Positions 3,195-7,992 of a DNA stretch of 17,679 nucleotides are shown piece by piece (the stretch's first letter is position 1; every line of letters begins with the position of its first letter). The translations under genes and the position numbers were made by a program. Origin of the DNA: a virus (taxonomy: Duplodnaviria > Heunggongvirae > Uroviricota > Caudoviricetes); IMG/VR virus record IMGVR_UViG_3300029234_000244. One strand, 5' to 3'. The notes under the pieces were generated by a model. It did not search any database and had not been told where the DNA came from. It saw only the letters and a program-made list of their open reading frames with translations.

Positions 3195-3782
3195 ACAAAA
3201 GGTTTCCTACCTCCAGATACAAGAAGGCCCGGCCATAACAATTTCTCATCTAAGACAAGATAAAGCCAGGGGGCCGGGCTCAGTTGAGTGTAACTCTATC
3301 CGAAGTTATCCACATGTCAATGCACAGTTACTTAGGAAACTAACATAGGTACTATCATCACTCACGAAAAACCACTATATGTGGTTTTTATTCATATCGT
3401 TATCCACTACAGGCTGTGTCAATAACTTTTACCTATTAATTGGGTAATTTCTACATTTTCCTATGCTGGCTAGTTTCTCTACTGAAAAGTTGGCACTCCT
3501 TAATCGCTTTTCGGTTAATGCTATCGGTCTTCATATTACCAGCAGCATACGCCATCCGATTATTTCGATGCTACGCGCGCGTACTTGTCTCGAAATTGGT
3601 GTTTTGCTGTGGCAGTGATATCAGAAAAATCTTCCTGTTTCACATAAAGCGGATATGTGCGCACTGTAACGGCCCCATCAACGGGGATCGGATTTGAAAT
3701 CCCGACCCAAGCTATGTACCAAATGCCATGTCTTGGATATATGATGATTGCCATTCTAAACAACGCTAAAGGGAGGGTTGGT

Positions 3783-4181
3783 GTGAATCAATTGAAGCGA
3801 TTGGTTGTCTCCGGTTTATTATTTGCTTCTTTTGGAGCGAACGCTGAATGCTGGATTATTGGTGATCTGAAAGGACAAGAAGCCTCAAGTTCAGATGGGT
3901 ATAACTATAAGTTATCATCTATACCAGATACCTTTCATTTGGTAATAAGTAAAGAGAAGGCGGATCTTATCTTGGCAAAAGATGGTATAGGTGGAAGTAT
4001 TGATTATTACCCGCTATCTCCGAATGCCATGATGGGAAGAAGCTATCGAGATGGTCAACTGACGCTTGTCACATGGGCAATCTCAAATGACGGAAAAGTG
4101 ATCCATACACGAACAATTAGTCGATCTGATATAGGCTCATTTACAGGCTCATTTGTCGGCAATGTTAAAGGCAAGTGTTAA
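3783..4181 (+). CDS. Small secreted (periplasmic) protein of unknown function, Sec signal peptide
   Basis: GTG at 3783 sits 5 nt after a strong Shine-Dalgarno AAAGGGAGG, giving MNQLKRLVVSGLLFASFGANA|ECW... (n-region, hydrophobic core, A-x-A cleavage site). Mature protein is about 112 aa with one Cys near each end. The ORF track frame extends upstream to ATG 3657 and 3741, but those starts lack a Shine-Dalgarno. Confidence 0.5.
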   Translation: MNQLKRLVVSGLLFASFGANAECWIIGDLKGQEASSSDGYNYKLSSIPDTFHLVISKEKADLILAKDGIGGSIDYYPLSPNAMMGRSYRDGQLTLVTWAISNDGKVIHTRTISRSDIGSFTGSFVGNVKGKC

Positions 4182-4242
4182 TGTTCATAACTATTTGAAA
4201 AAATACTAATTACTATTATAACCAACCATCCATGGCCATCTG

Positions 4243-6348
4243 TTATTGAGCTTCCTTTTGCGATGCTTGTGCGACTCTGGTGAGCGATTGTGTGACCGTA
4301 CTGATCGCTCTGTCATATGCTGTGCTACCTTTTGGCGTATTTGCCAGACGTAACAAGGCATTTCGTATAACAGGGCTTTCGTATGCCTTCGCTGCTCCGC
4401 CTACGGCACCAGCAGCAGGAACAACAAACGCAGCCGTTTTTAGCATCCCCGCTAATACTGCTGCGTTTATGATGCCACCACCAACTAACAATCCATAAAG
4501 CTGCTGACCATTTAAGTTTTGAACGTTCGCTTTTGCCGCGTGTCTTGTATCGTTGAGGTATTTAATAACGCCGTCCAGTTCCTTTCCATGTATGCCTTTA
4601 AAGAAAGTTGCTGATTGCTTCCTGTTCCGGTGTAACGCATTAATAAACTTCTCAACACTGATATTTCCAGACGGATCAGTCGCCTTATCTACAGCATTCT
4701 GAACTATGGCTGCTCGTGCGTTTTGCCTACCATTGTCATCCAGAAGCCTGTAAAGCTGAGAACGTTCTGATGGGCTTTGGCTAAAAACAAGTTTTGTTAC
4801 ATCCTCAGGCGTGGCCTTGCCGCTGGCTATTGCCTTTTGAACGCGCGTTCTTCCCATCATGTCATTGAATTTAGACCATGAGCGATCAACCCTTGCCATA
4901 TTAATAGCTTCGTCTGCTCCAAGATTTTTGGCTACGGCTTTTTTCATATCCGCCGTATATGCCTTGTAGATAATATCGCTGGCTTTCTGGAGCGTATCTT
5001 TATCAACAGTGTCAGATGACGCCATAAATCGCTTTCGAAGATCGGTTCTGTTTTCCCTCGCCAGACGCAGGTCATTTGGTCCGCTGGTGATATCGTCTTT
5101 AAATTGCTGCAAGACTTTTACCGCGGCTCTATCCTGAGATTTGCCCGGGCGGCTTAACACGGCAATCTGATTGTCGATAGCTTTTACCGTGTTTGAGAGA
5201 TCGACAGGGGTATCCCCCATAGCGTCAATTATGCGGTTATATCGCTTTCCTGCTGCCTCAATGAATTTTTGTTGCCCTTTAGTCGCAGATTCATAAAGCT
5301 GTTTATCAGAAATGCCACCCAGACCATCGCTAAATGTTCTGACTAAATTTTCTCGTGCTTGTTGTTGATTCAGCCGATTCTTACCGGTTCCAAAAAAAGG
5401 AACTCTTTCGCCTAATGTCTGAGCCTGACTCTGCATAAAGGTTTTATCTTTCAGCATGTCACTGGTCATTAACGGCAGATTTCTTTCCGATGCAAAGTCG
5501 ACAGCAGCCTTTGCTTCAGGCGACATATCACCACGAACAGCCCTCGAAACCGCACTCGCTGTATTTTCCAGCCCCTTACCAATACCACCAATGCCAGCAG
5601 AAATTACCGTTTGTAACGGATCAATATCTTCTCCACCAGCGAGGCTGGTGGCTCCCTGTAGTGCTAAATCTGTAGCTGCTGATTTCCCTATGGCCCCCAG
5701 CACCGTTCCGGCCCTGCCCGCTGGTGTAAACGCCAGCGCATTAGCCAGAAACGATGCCACGTCTTGCGGCGATAAACCCGGCTTGTTCAGAGCATAATCA
5801 CCGGATGGCAGGGAAACGATAGTGTTACCCTTCTCATCCTGCCTTAATTTCGCTCCCATGCTCTGAAGAATCTTTTCCTGAGATGCGTCAGAGCCGAAAA
5901 GTTGAGACCATCGAGCTTTTAGAGCATCCATGCTGAGTGAGGTTAACTCTGGGGCAAGGTCGACATTTTGCAGTCTCTCCATCTCTGGAGTCATTCGGCT
6001 TTCGCCTGTTATAGCATCGCGCATCGCAGCCCCAAGACTGGCTCCCTGTTCTGCTGAACGCTCAAGCCCCTCTCTTTGCTGAGTAGCTAACTTTGCATAC
6101 CCTGACGCAATAGAATTATCAGATGATGTATGTTGAATATTTTGAGTTGCTGATTGGGATCGGTCTATTTCATTCGTTGATGGTAGTGGATAGGCAGCAT
6201 AAAAAGCCTGCTTAGCCTGCTCTACACTTTCTCCGGCTTGCGGGGCAACGACTTCATTGAAGTATTGCTCCTGAGCCTGCGCTTTTTGTTCTGGTGCTAA
6301 CGCCTGATACTGTGGAGAGGCGATAACATCTTTCCATGCTTTAGCCAT
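4243..6348 (-). CDS. Hypothetical 701-aa protein, Ala/Gln/Gly-rich, C-proximal hydrophobic Gly/Ala segment
   Basis: Long ORF with GGGGTGA Shine-Dalgarno; its ATG overlaps the upstream stop (TAATG at 6346-6350). Contains LYGLLVGGGIINAAVLAGMLKTAAFVVPAAGAVGGAA about 60 aa from the C-terminus. I see no Walker A or other catalytic motif. Confidence 0.8.
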   Translation of the reverse strand: MAKAWKDVIASPQYQALAPEQKAQAQEQYFNEVVAPQAGESVEQAKQAFYAAYPLPSTNEIDRSQSATQNIQHTSSDNSIASGYAKLATQQREGLERSAEQGASLGAAMRDAITGESRMTPEMERLQNVDLAPELTSLSMDALKARWSQLFGSDASQEKILQSMGAKLRQDEKGNTIVSLPSGDYALNKPGLSPQDVASFLANALAFTPAGRAGTVLGAIGKSAATDLALQGATSLAGGEDIDPLQTVISAGIGGIGKGLENTASAVSRAVRGDMSPEAKAAVDFASERNLPLMTSDMLKDKTFMQSQAQTLGERVPFFGTGKNRLNQQQARENLVRTFSDGLGGISDKQLYESATKGQQKFIEAAGKRYNRIIDAMGDTPVDLSNTVKAIDNQIAVLSRPGKSQDRAAVKVLQQFKDDITSGPNDLRLARENRTDLRKRFMASSDTVDKDTLQKASDIIYKAYTADMKKAVAKNLGADEAINMARVDRSWSKFNDMMGRTRVQKAIASGKATPEDVTKLVFSQSPSERSQLYRLLDDNGRQNARAAIVQNAVDKATDPSGNISVEKFINALHRNRKQSATFFKGIHGKELDGVIKYLNDTRHAAKANVQNLNGQQLYGLLVGGGIINAAVLAGMLKTAAFVVPAAGAVGGAAKAYESPVIRNALLRLANTPKGSTAYDRAISTVTQSLTRVAQASQKEAQ

Positions 6349-7814
6349 TAATCACCCCATAGTGAAGAAAAGTTACTGCTGGCTGCTGGCTGTGATACCT
6401 GCTCAGATTGCGGCAATGTCTGCGACGAAGAAGAAGTTCCTCTGTCAACTGCTGAAATAACCCGCAAAGCATCATAAGTTCGACCAGAAGCAGCTTTCAG
6501 CGAATTGAACTGGTTTTCCATCTTCCGGCGCTTGGTATCAATGGTTTTTGTGGAGTCGCCAGGCTGAGGGAAATACATTTGATAATATTTTGACATTTCA
6601 GCAGGTGCGATAGCTGCCCCTGTTTCCTGACGGAGTATTGCCATTATTGCGTCATTAGCATTAACAACGTATTGCTGCTCTGCTGGGCTGAGCGTTAAGT
6701 TAGCCAGCGTCCCATTACCCAAAGCATTATTAATGATCGCCACTCGCTGTGGGCTAAGCTGGTCTTTCAGTGTATCTATTGAATCAAGAGCATCCCTAAC
6801 CCTGTATGCAAATCCAGCAGCTTTTTTAGCCCCTTCTGGCGACTTTTCCATGATCTTTTGGGCTGTTGGCAAAGCTATTGGACGAAACCCATCTCCAGAT
6901 ATTGGCTGGTTTAGTTTTCCCTGCTCTTCACTTCCGTCTGTGTAGTATTTTGTGACAGTGCCATCATCGTTTTCTCTAACACTCATTAATTTTTTGGTGT
7001 TTGTATTAATTCCAGCCGCTGCCGCAAATGCCGCCGCCCCCTCTGGATCAGCCTTTAACATTTGCGCGTACTGATTGTAATTCTGCATTGCTGCTGTTGG
7101 TGCATATGCTGACGTTAACGCATTTGCTCGGCTAATATCCTGCCCTCTCGCCTGAAGTGCTTCACCAGCCTGATTGCTGCGGATTGTCTCTGCCAACTTG
7201 CCACGCTCAATATCCCGACTTTCCATTTGATCTTTGATATCGAAATACTTCTCATGACCGAGAGAAAACAGCGCCAGATTACCTGCGAAATGCTGGAAGC
7301 CCTGCGGGTCATTAACCTGCATTTCAGCAATAGTTTCTGGAGGGATACCTAAACGACGCATCTCCTGCTCATTATCCATCATGAACCTGCCAAATGCGCC
7401 CGGACCAAGCGATGAGGCTACCTGTGCTTTGAGCGCCAGATTGCCATAATCATCCCTTTGAGCATCATCGACATAACTCATCCCTTTACGGACTTCCTCA
7501 AACTCTTCTGGGAATGCTGTAATAAGATTACGCATCTGCTCCCTGTCACCGGACGCATAAGCATCTGCATAACCTTTCTGGAATGCCGCTTTACGCTCCT
7601 GCTGTTGCTGCTGCTTATAAATATCAGCAACTCCAGCCAGACCACGAAGACCTGTCAGAGCAACGTTATTTGCACCTGATCGAGCCAGTTCATTGTTTTC
7701 GCGGATCAGACCAAGCGTTGCGTTAATGTCGCTTGCCTTTGGCGCATTCTCATTTTGCGTACCGATGCCAGCAAGAAACCCACCAGAATTAATACCCTGT
7801 TGCCACGTAGCCAT
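6348..7814 (-). CDS. Hypothetical 488-aa protein, Gln/Ala-rich, no recognisable domain
   Basis: Long ORF. I prefer ATG at 7814 (MATWQQGINSGG...), 4 nt after the stop of the 57-aa gene. The ORF track uses a GTG at 7826, which would overlap that gene. Stop overlaps the start of the 701-aa gene. Confidence 0.8.
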   Translation of the reverse strand: MATWQQGINSGGFLAGIGTQNENAPKASDINATLGLIRENNELARSGANNVALTGLRGLAGVADIYKQQQQQERKAAFQKGYADAYASGDREQMRNLITAFPEEFEEVRKGMSYVDDAQRDDYGNLALKAQVASSLGPGAFGRFMMDNEQEMRRLGIPPETIAEMQVNDPQGFQHFAGNLALFSLGHEKYFDIKDQMESRDIERGKLAETIRSNQAGEALQARGQDISRANALTSAYAPTAAMQNYNQYAQMLKADPEGAAAFAAAAGINTNTKKLMSVRENDDGTVTKYYTDGSEEQGKLNQPISGDGFRPIALPTAQKIMEKSPEGAKKAAGFAYRVRDALDSIDTLKDQLSPQRVAIINNALGNGTLANLTLSPAEQQYVVNANDAIMAILRQETGAAIAPAEMSKYYQMYFPQPGDSTKTIDTKRRKMENQFNSLKAASGRTYDALRVISAVDRGTSSSSQTLPQSEQVSQPAASSNFSSLWGD

Positions 7815-7818
7815 TGAT

Positions 7819-7992
7819 TTACCCACGTCCAGTTAAAGTGTAAGCCAGCGCCTTATCCATTAATCCCCGAGCAATTTCGTGGATCGTTGGCGCAACTCCT
7901 ACCTCTGATTTTTTACGCTGCTCCTCCTGAATTTTCTTTATCGCTTCCATTTGCTTCTCACTTATCAATACCGGCTTTACTGAAATAGCCAT
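7819..7992 (-). CDS. Small 57-aa protein, helix-rich, possible DNA-binding (HTH/RHH-like); first gene of the LexA-box operon
   Basis: Translated by hand: MAISVKPVLISEKQMEAIKKIQEEQRKKSEVGVAPTIHEIARGLMDKALAYTLTGRG. Shine-Dalgarno AAGGGGG lies 4 nt before the ATG at 7992. Below the 60-aa cut-off of the ORF track. Confidence 0.55.
   Translation of the reverse strand: MAISVKPVLISEKQMEAIKKIQEEQRKKSEVGVAPTIHEIARGLMDKALAYTLTGRG

Follow-up and report, generated by a model that had tools for sequence, protein, structure and literature searches.

A divergent Hex-family gene in the sieA position of an EcCIMP1-like satellite, with a possible role in superinfection exclusion

The stretch of viral DNA analysed here, IMG/VR record IMGVR_UViG_3300029234_000244 (17,679 nucleotides [nt]; hereafter the window), carries at positions 3783–4181 a small gene whose product is, by sequence, a divergent new member (about 30% identity) of a known and barely characterised family, that of the Hex protein of phage 434, its one studied member. 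It is found here in a new carrier, a phage-inducible chromosomal island (PICI, a phage satellite), and in the position that sieA holds in phage P22. The reading that we favour, with a probability of roughly one half, is that the gene encodes a periplasmic superinfection-exclusion factor against P22-like phages, one that would block DNA delivery as a soluble counterpart of SieA. The second hypothesis of an earlier note on this DNA had been a role in superinfection exclusion or in periplasmic defence, and we prefer it because of the homology to Hex, the predicted export, and the sieA-equivalent position, and also because of the adjacent AbiD gene, the swappable nature of the cargo, and the P22-like helpers of this PICI family. 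The features of the small gene are as follows.

3783–4181, + strand: coding sequence (CDS) for a 132-amino-acid (aa) precursor, a Hex-family exported protein (export predicted), with GTG start and TAA stop; from the NCBI Prokaryotic Genome Annotation Pipeline (PGAP), phrog_2651 and tblastn
3771–3777, + strand: Shine-Dalgarno sequence GGGAGGG (core GGAGG at 3772–3776, 6 nt 5' of the GTG); from the sequence
3783–3845, + strand: putative signal peptide of 21 codons, MNQLKRLVVSGLLFASFGANA, with a predicted signal peptidase I cut after A-N-A; from the sequence and the family alignment
3846–4178, + strand: mature 111-aa protein, predicted to be a small all-beta barrel; from AlphaFold2
3574–3788, + strand: conserved leader common to alternative cargo genes, comprising the Shine-Dalgarno sequence, the GTG, codon 2, and presumably a promoter
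3789–4225, + strand: exchangeable cargo cassette, over which the window and E. coli ABU 83972 differ; from comparison of the two

The translation of 3783–4181 begins VNQLKRLVVSGLLFASFGANAECWII / VNQLKRLVVSGLLFASFGANAECWIIGDL and ends FVGNVKGKC*, and the last base of its stop codon is 4181, which 61 nt separate from the stop of a convergent 701-aa gene at 4243. An identical 399-nt CDS is called by PGAP in E. coli genomes (WP_001426179.1, hypothetical protein), and of 5426 complete E. coli genomes, 126 have a window-type gene, with at least 99% identity in every case. The strong Shine-Dalgarno sequence, GTG start, Sec signal peptide, terminal cysteines, and convergent placement described in the earlier note are all seen in the sequence, and translation from 3783 is borne out by agreement among the PGAP CDS, the N-termini of homologues, and the cassette boundary, with homology to ABU 83972 stopping right after codon 2. 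Two longer starts, at 3657 and 3744, were rejected: both would bury the signal peptide, both are without a Shine-Dalgarno sequence, and both are contradicted by the cassette boundary and the homologue N-termini, which favour 3783. The gene, its start codon, and its family membership are secure, and we hold them with very high confidence; that the gene is real and not a chance reading frame follows from the PGAP call, its presence in 126 genomes, the shared family architecture, the conserved −3/−1 site, and the ratio of nonsynonymous to synonymous polymorphism (pN/pS) given below. A possible −10 element, TATGAT, can be read at 3740–3745; no strong sigma-70 consensus was found by a promoter scan of the leader at 3574–3788.

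The window protein matches phrog_2651 with an E-value of 3.6e-22 (residues 17–132 against profile positions 1–116 of 117), PHROG 2651 being a family of unknown function without a Pfam entry. A tblastn search of phage genomes returned 16 records with 29.6–33% identity, at least 95% coverage, and E-values of about 1e-11 to 1e-15; these include phage 434, lambda imm434, Sf6 (gene 38, gp38), HK446, HK633, Sf101, Chlobot, and Huey, together with two P22-like phages of Salmonella, Emek (orf129) and ST-35. When 1.8 billion cluster representatives were searched exhaustively with HMMER, 38 matched, about 30 of which are 126–144 aa long and share a common architecture; long repeat proteins with PKD, DUF285 or PepSY repeats (P0007, P0024, P0025, P0033, and P0035) were rejected as relatives because their scores sum weak repeated matches. 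A word-index homologue search, also when the family profile was used, gave few matches, and a scan of genome contigs yielded one locus, from Kluyvera. The named members are from phages of Escherichia, Salmonella and Shigella or from Cronobacter, Serratia, Affinibrenneria, Kluyvera, and Aeromonas, and all are labelled hypothetical.

In an alignment of 33 members Cys23 and Gly31 are invariant, and Trp98, Gly126 and Cys132 are conserved in at least 90%. A basic n-region followed by a hydrophobic core opens every aligned sequence, and in 32 of the 33 the −3/−1 rule is satisfied exactly one residue before the invariant cysteine, which in most members is preceded by E, Q, D, N or K. Almost all of the mature proteins in this set have two or four cysteines. 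A Pfam scan of all 33 found no family matched by more than one member at E ≤ 0.1, with single spurious matches. The branch that contains Hex of phage 434 (Hex434 type) has a pN/pS of 0.13 over 35 distinct alleles, with no premature stops, and is present in 207 E. coli genomes, always beside a LexA-family repressor gene; in RefSeq all of these genes, in the 126 genomes with the window type and the 207 with the Hex434 type, are called "hypothetical protein".

Several members depart from the common pattern. A second conserved cysteine pair lies mid-barrel in a subgroup (P0021, P0026, P0031, P0038–P0041, and P0043), and one or two members (e.g. P0034, …IGAC), whose signal ends in a lipobox-like sequence, may be lipoproteins. 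The ST-35 copy (L007 4785–5396), which is of the Emek type, ends …KVKENVSD and not …KVKRKC, so that the conserved terminal cysteine is lost, and it may be a frameshifted or inactive allele. In the Huey record (PQ850609.1) the Hex homologue is annotated 'PagP lipid A acylation protein', a name that probably reads too much into a weak match of beta-barrel folds.

The signal peptide of the window protein, called from sequence features and the −3/−1 rule, combines a basic n-region (K5, R6) and a hydrophobic core with A-N-A at positions −3 to −1 (…GANA/ECW). The computed mature protein has 111 aa, a mass of 12.0 kDa, an isoelectric point of 7.0, and a grand average of hydropathy of −0.23; Cys23 (3849–3851) becomes mature residue 2 and Cys132 (4176–4178) is the last residue. 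These features predict export by Sec and a periplasmic location. AlphaFold2 returns a confident all-beta barrel of nine strands (predicted local distance difference test score 93.8, predicted template-modelling score 0.84), in which several strands are only 5–6 residues long and a C-terminal aromatic residue is absent; the short strands, the overall hydrophilic character, and the missing aromatic residue argue for a soluble barrel and not an outer-membrane one. Strand 1 of the model covers mature residues 2–14 and the last strand residues 97–110, and since these two would be adjacent in a closed antiparallel barrel, the conserved cysteine pair could clamp the seam, with a probable Cys2–Cys111 disulfide joining first and last strands. 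Every structural match is weak and generic (PknI sensor domain, NHBA C-domain, NspA, and Cap15; lipocalins, fatty-acid-binding proteins, and avidins). No specific solved relative of the predicted barrel was found, a profile search of PDB sequences being empty, and the small protein had no match in Pfam, NCBIfam, or PADLOC.

The homologue in phage 434, encoded directly behind cI under the annotation "repressor protection protein", is the same protein as the published Hex (Shkilnyj, Colon & Koudelka 2013, PMC3564112), because in the longest open reading frame (ORF) after 434 cI, of 158 aa, Glu43 and Asn103 fall at the ends given there for the fragment sHex. Hex stands for "heterologous exclusion": in the account given by that paper, citing Susskind & Botstein 1980, Salmonella lysogens of lambda-imm434 exclude P22 and hex mutants do not (PMC3564112). 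The same study reports that deletion of hex raises spontaneous induction 30-fold in a recA-dependent manner, that sHex (E43–N103) inhibits in vitro the RecA-stimulated cleavage of both the 434 and the P22 repressor, and that overexpressing the full-length Hex protein is lethal, with processing left unexplained by the authors (PMC3564112); a signal peptide, the periplasm, and the membrane are nowhere mentioned in it. The start of sHex, Glu43, is exactly the predicted signal-peptidase site (…SANS/ECW), and we take this start site and the lethality to be unrecognised signs of Hex export. The 158-aa ORF of the 2013 study (L002 2938–3414, phage 434) overlaps cI; the N-termini of homologues and the signal peptide point to the internal Met25 (MIRIAALL…) as the likely true start of 434 Hex.

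434 Hex, which is identical or near-identical to Sf6 gp38 and to the HK446, HK633 and Sf101 homologues, is homologous to the window protein from end to end (about 30% identity, E 2e-13 to 3e-15), and the two share their size, the signal peptide, an x-C-W mature N-terminus, and an FVGxVxGxC C-terminus. Both are accessory genes of prophages or satellites, in slots typical of lysogen-expressed genes. They differ in that hex adjoins cI in the PRM operon, whereas the window gene follows a gp16 homologue in a PICI and has no adjacent repressor gene; the sequences are also strongly diverged, and export is at variance with the cytoplasmic repressor protection published for Hex. The family-wide signal peptide, the cysteine pair, and the predicted periplasmic barrel suggest that the Hex family works in the envelope. 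The wider interest lies here: Hex has had a named exclusion function since 1980 that is poorly understood, the only molecular study treats the protein as cytoplasmic, and the family looks periplasmic, at odds with that sole published mechanism.

Three neighbouring genes bear on the placement of the window gene.

4243–6348, − strand: 701-aa homologue of the P22 gp16 ejection protein, convergent with the small gene; from phrog_770 and BLAST
6348–7826, − strand: 492-aa homologue of the P22 gp20 ejection protein; the PGAP start lies 4 codons downstream and gives 488 aa
2232–3194, − strand: AbiD / Abi_2 abortive-infection gene, which adjoins the small gene; from PDLC02344 AbiD, E 2.7e-57

The 701-aa protein matches phrog_770 with an E-value of 6.9e-161 and P22 gp16 with 30% identity over 482 aa (E 4e-53), and the 492-aa protein matches PF16928 (Inj_translocase) with an E-value of 6.6e-84. 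In P22 the gene order is 14-7-20-16, followed 22 nt on by the convergent sieA, and the window gene thus occupies the sieA slot. SieA blocks P22 DNA injection via gp16 and gp20, is carried by only 22 of 66 P22-like phages, and is an inner-membrane protein with three transmembrane segments, no signal peptide, and a cytoplasmic FxRYPxEAxxFNK motif (PMC10883804). The window gene resembles sieA in position and orientation (convergent, tens of nt after gene 16), in lying on the same kind of element, and presumably in its class of target, P22-like phages that use gp7, gp20, and gp16; it differs in that its product is predicted to be a soluble beta-barrel and not a three-segment membrane protein. Membership of the SieA family was considered and rejected (BLASTP against P22 SieA, E 1.6; all-beta prediction; motif absent).

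The genes cI434, cro, N, gp16, and gp20 were mapped onto 80 IMG/VR loci and reference phages. The majority slot of the family is after a 434-type cI (78–100% identical), with the start of the gene overlapping or abutting the cI stop and the gene therefore lying within the PRM lysogenic operon; these post-cI members include the siphoviruses 434 and HK446, and the stretches inspected there are without gp16 and gp20. A second slot, convergent and a few to tens of nt after a gp16 homologue, is seen in Emek, ST-35, L086, L087, and L089, and also in L015–L017, where gp16 is only 34–38% identical and the Hex-like protein about 38% identical. A tailspike gene stands on the other side of the Hex-like gene in L015 and L016; in the window, PICI cargo replaces the tailspike side of the slot. 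Other family members adjoin terS, an O-acetyltransferase gene, or ant, places where accessory genes are likewise commonly met.

Comparison with ABU 83972 shows how the slot is filled. The window is 97% identical to it over 3574–3788 (L008 5424–5637) and homology returns at 4226, so the slot is a cargo hotspot in which different genes stand behind one shared start codon, beside AbiD. The ABU 83972 slot (L008 5632–5982) holds a gene for an unrelated, strongly hydrophobic 116-aa protein with the same leader, Shine-Dalgarno sequence, and GTG-AAT start. This protein has about four hydrophobic segments as judged by eye, has no PHROG match and no similarity to SieA, and may be another exclusion cargo.

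If the window gene is an exclusion factor, it would be a functional accessory ("moron") gene on an EcCIMP1-like satellite, its product being exported by Sec, cleaved after Ala21, and folded as a soluble 12-kDa periplasmic beta-barrel with Cys2–Cys111 probably tying the first and last strands. The carrier cell, as with Hex, would exclude superinfecting P22-like podoviruses, and we infer both this phenotype and a periplasmic target: the protein would act while DNA is being delivered, through interference with the gp7/gp20/gp16 ejection conduit or at another envelope step. T4 Spackle and P1 Sim are small Sec-exported proteins that stop the DNA entry of related phages after adsorption, and the target of Spackle is the tail lysozyme gp5. 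The predicted window protein is like them in being small and Sec-exported; they belong to other phage groups, and no homology to them was detected, though none was tested for directly. The T4 genes imm and sp are mentioned in PMC11436027. The recurrence of family members in the sieA slot, beside ejection genes, gives a testable hypothesis of a soluble periplasmic blocker of podovirus DNA delivery, and the practical gain would be modest: annotation, prediction of phage host range, and the choice of therapeutic phages.

Several points weigh against an exclusion role. The window protein is only about 30% identical to Hex and its function is a prediction. Hex may exclude P22 at entry or by abortive infection, and the sole biochemical study of Hex reports a cytoplasmic activity, with export never considered. 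Neither the promoter and terminator scan nor RNA folds of the 61-nt convergent spacer gave a convincing promoter or terminator. EcCIMP1, an E. coli PICI that is induced and transferred by the P22-like phage Kapi1, adds superinfection immunity against Kapi1 with no known defence system detected (PMC11773190); it has no Hex-like gene, and its immunity therefore cannot be credited to the Hex family. The slot after gp16 is a place to seek the determinant of this unexplained immunity. As a long shot, the Hex-like gene and gp20/gp16 could be a matched exclusion-and-escape module of the satellite, in which the Hex-like barrel would block the ejection conduit of helper-type P22-like phages, and the satellite's own gp20 and gp16, packaged in satellite particles, would be insensitive to it and perhaps to the SieA or Hex of a recipient. 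Were this so, satellite cells would exclude competitor phages while satellite particles enter protected cells, Hex proteins would act in the periplasm generally, and the published cytoplasmic mechanism would be secondary or an artefact.

The main alternatives place the protein's action elsewhere or give it another purpose. The published view of 434 Hex, in which the protein or a fragment of it hinders in the cytoplasm the RecA-stimulated autocleavage of 434- or P22-type repressors, would have the window gene stabilise a resident P22-like helper prophage and so indirectly keep the satellite quiescent. The induction phenotype of the hex deletion and the in vitro inhibition of cleavage by sHex speak for this, as does the P22-like nature of the helpers of this PICI family (PMC11773190); the deletion, however, is within the operon of cI, where it overlaps the stop of that gene, and may thus have had polar effects on cI. 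A family-wide Sec signal peptide and paired cysteines are features of periplasmic proteins, no cI-type repressor gene lies beside the small gene in the window island, and members in the gene-16 slot or beside terS or O-acetyltransferase genes are not linked to a repressor, all of which makes repressor protection improbable here. A protein of the periplasm need not exclude phages, and it might instead serve host fitness by binding a ligand or inhibiting an enzyme, for example as a calycin-like binder of small hydrophobic molecules or as an inhibitor of lysozyme or a lytic transglycosylase. We consider such a role unlikely: the structural matches are all weak and generic, the one known genetic phenotype of the family is phage exclusion, and none of the 33 members matches the MliC/PliC models in the Pfam scan (E ≤ 0.1), so membership of that family of periplasmic lysozyme inhibitors was rejected. 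The two roles overlap in part, as an inhibitor of a phage-borne muralytic enzyme would be an exclusion factor too. Masking of an outer-membrane receptor in the manner of Cor, Llp, and TraT, with a block to adsorption or at an outer-membrane step, is very unlikely. The lipobox [LVI][ASTVI][GAS]C of these lipoprotein exclusion factors is absent, because Glu stands at −1 of the cysteine (…G-A-N-A-E-C); the 111-aa mature protein, in which several strands have only 5–6 residues, is hydrophilic overall and lacks the C-terminal aromatic signal, and a small protein would hardly be expected to mask O-antigen, to which P22-like phages adsorb.

The first hypothesis of the earlier note, a colicin-style immunity toward the 701-aa protein, is largely refuted, and a role as antidote to the 488/701-aa pair is now hardly credible. 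In its favour are the tight convergence with a gp16 homologue, which recurs in several divergent P22-like phages as well as in this island, and the membrane activity of gp16 during infection (PMC10883804). It fails because the partner is a virion protein and the convergence is inherited P22 gene order: gp16 and gp20 are made in the cytoplasm and packaged in capsids, not secreted as toxins, and domain-profile scans found no colicin or toxin domain in the 701-aa or 492-aa protein. It fails also because the linkage is broken in both directions and most family members lie in cI modules, some of them in siphoviruses. A gp16-like gene (at least 80% coverage) is present in 398 E. coli genomes, 272 of which are without the small gene, so that co-occurrence with the 488/701 operon, proposed in the note as a check, is not obligate (126 against 398 genomes), and ABU 83972 and EcCIMP1 have the ejection genes with other cargo or none. 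The likeness to colicin immunity proteins is confined to small size and a position beside a larger gene; the window gene has no colicin-type partner and its mature product no transmembrane helices, and membership of that group was rejected.

The island that carries the gene is an EcCIMP1-like PICI, and in the best-matching E. coli genome examined (strain 19451123) it adjoins dinD and yicG. Besides the genes already described, the window encodes a P4-type integrase, AlpA, an AntA/AntB antirepressor, Ash, a Toprim-DUF927 primase, and PerC. It has the same backbone as EcCIMP1, including the gp20 and gp16 homologues and PerC; EcCIMP1 keeps gp14- and gp7-like genes and has other cargo, whereas in the window gp14 and gp7 are absent and Hex-like and AbiD cargo is present. 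Compared with L008 8106–10813 and L090 15315–17944, window positions 6348–7992 are without the gp14-like (DUF2824) and gp7-like genes of the ABU 83972 and EcCIMP1 islands, and a 57-aa ORF directly abuts the gp20 start. AbiD and the small gene mark an accessory defence region of the island. A 151-aa ORF (1775–2230) lies with AbiD/Abi_2 between PerC and the Hex-like gene; ABU 83972 has other genes (phrog_7651, phrog_8552) in place of this ORF and AbiD, and the stretch from PerC to the Hex-like gene behaves as a variable accessory region of the PICI. Upstream of the small gene, about 263 bp present in most E. coli relatives are missing from the window (3574–3596 against L001 12198–12460), and a direct repeat of about 23 bp (gcgcgcgtacttgtc…) flanks the missing piece, which suggests a deletion between the repeats.
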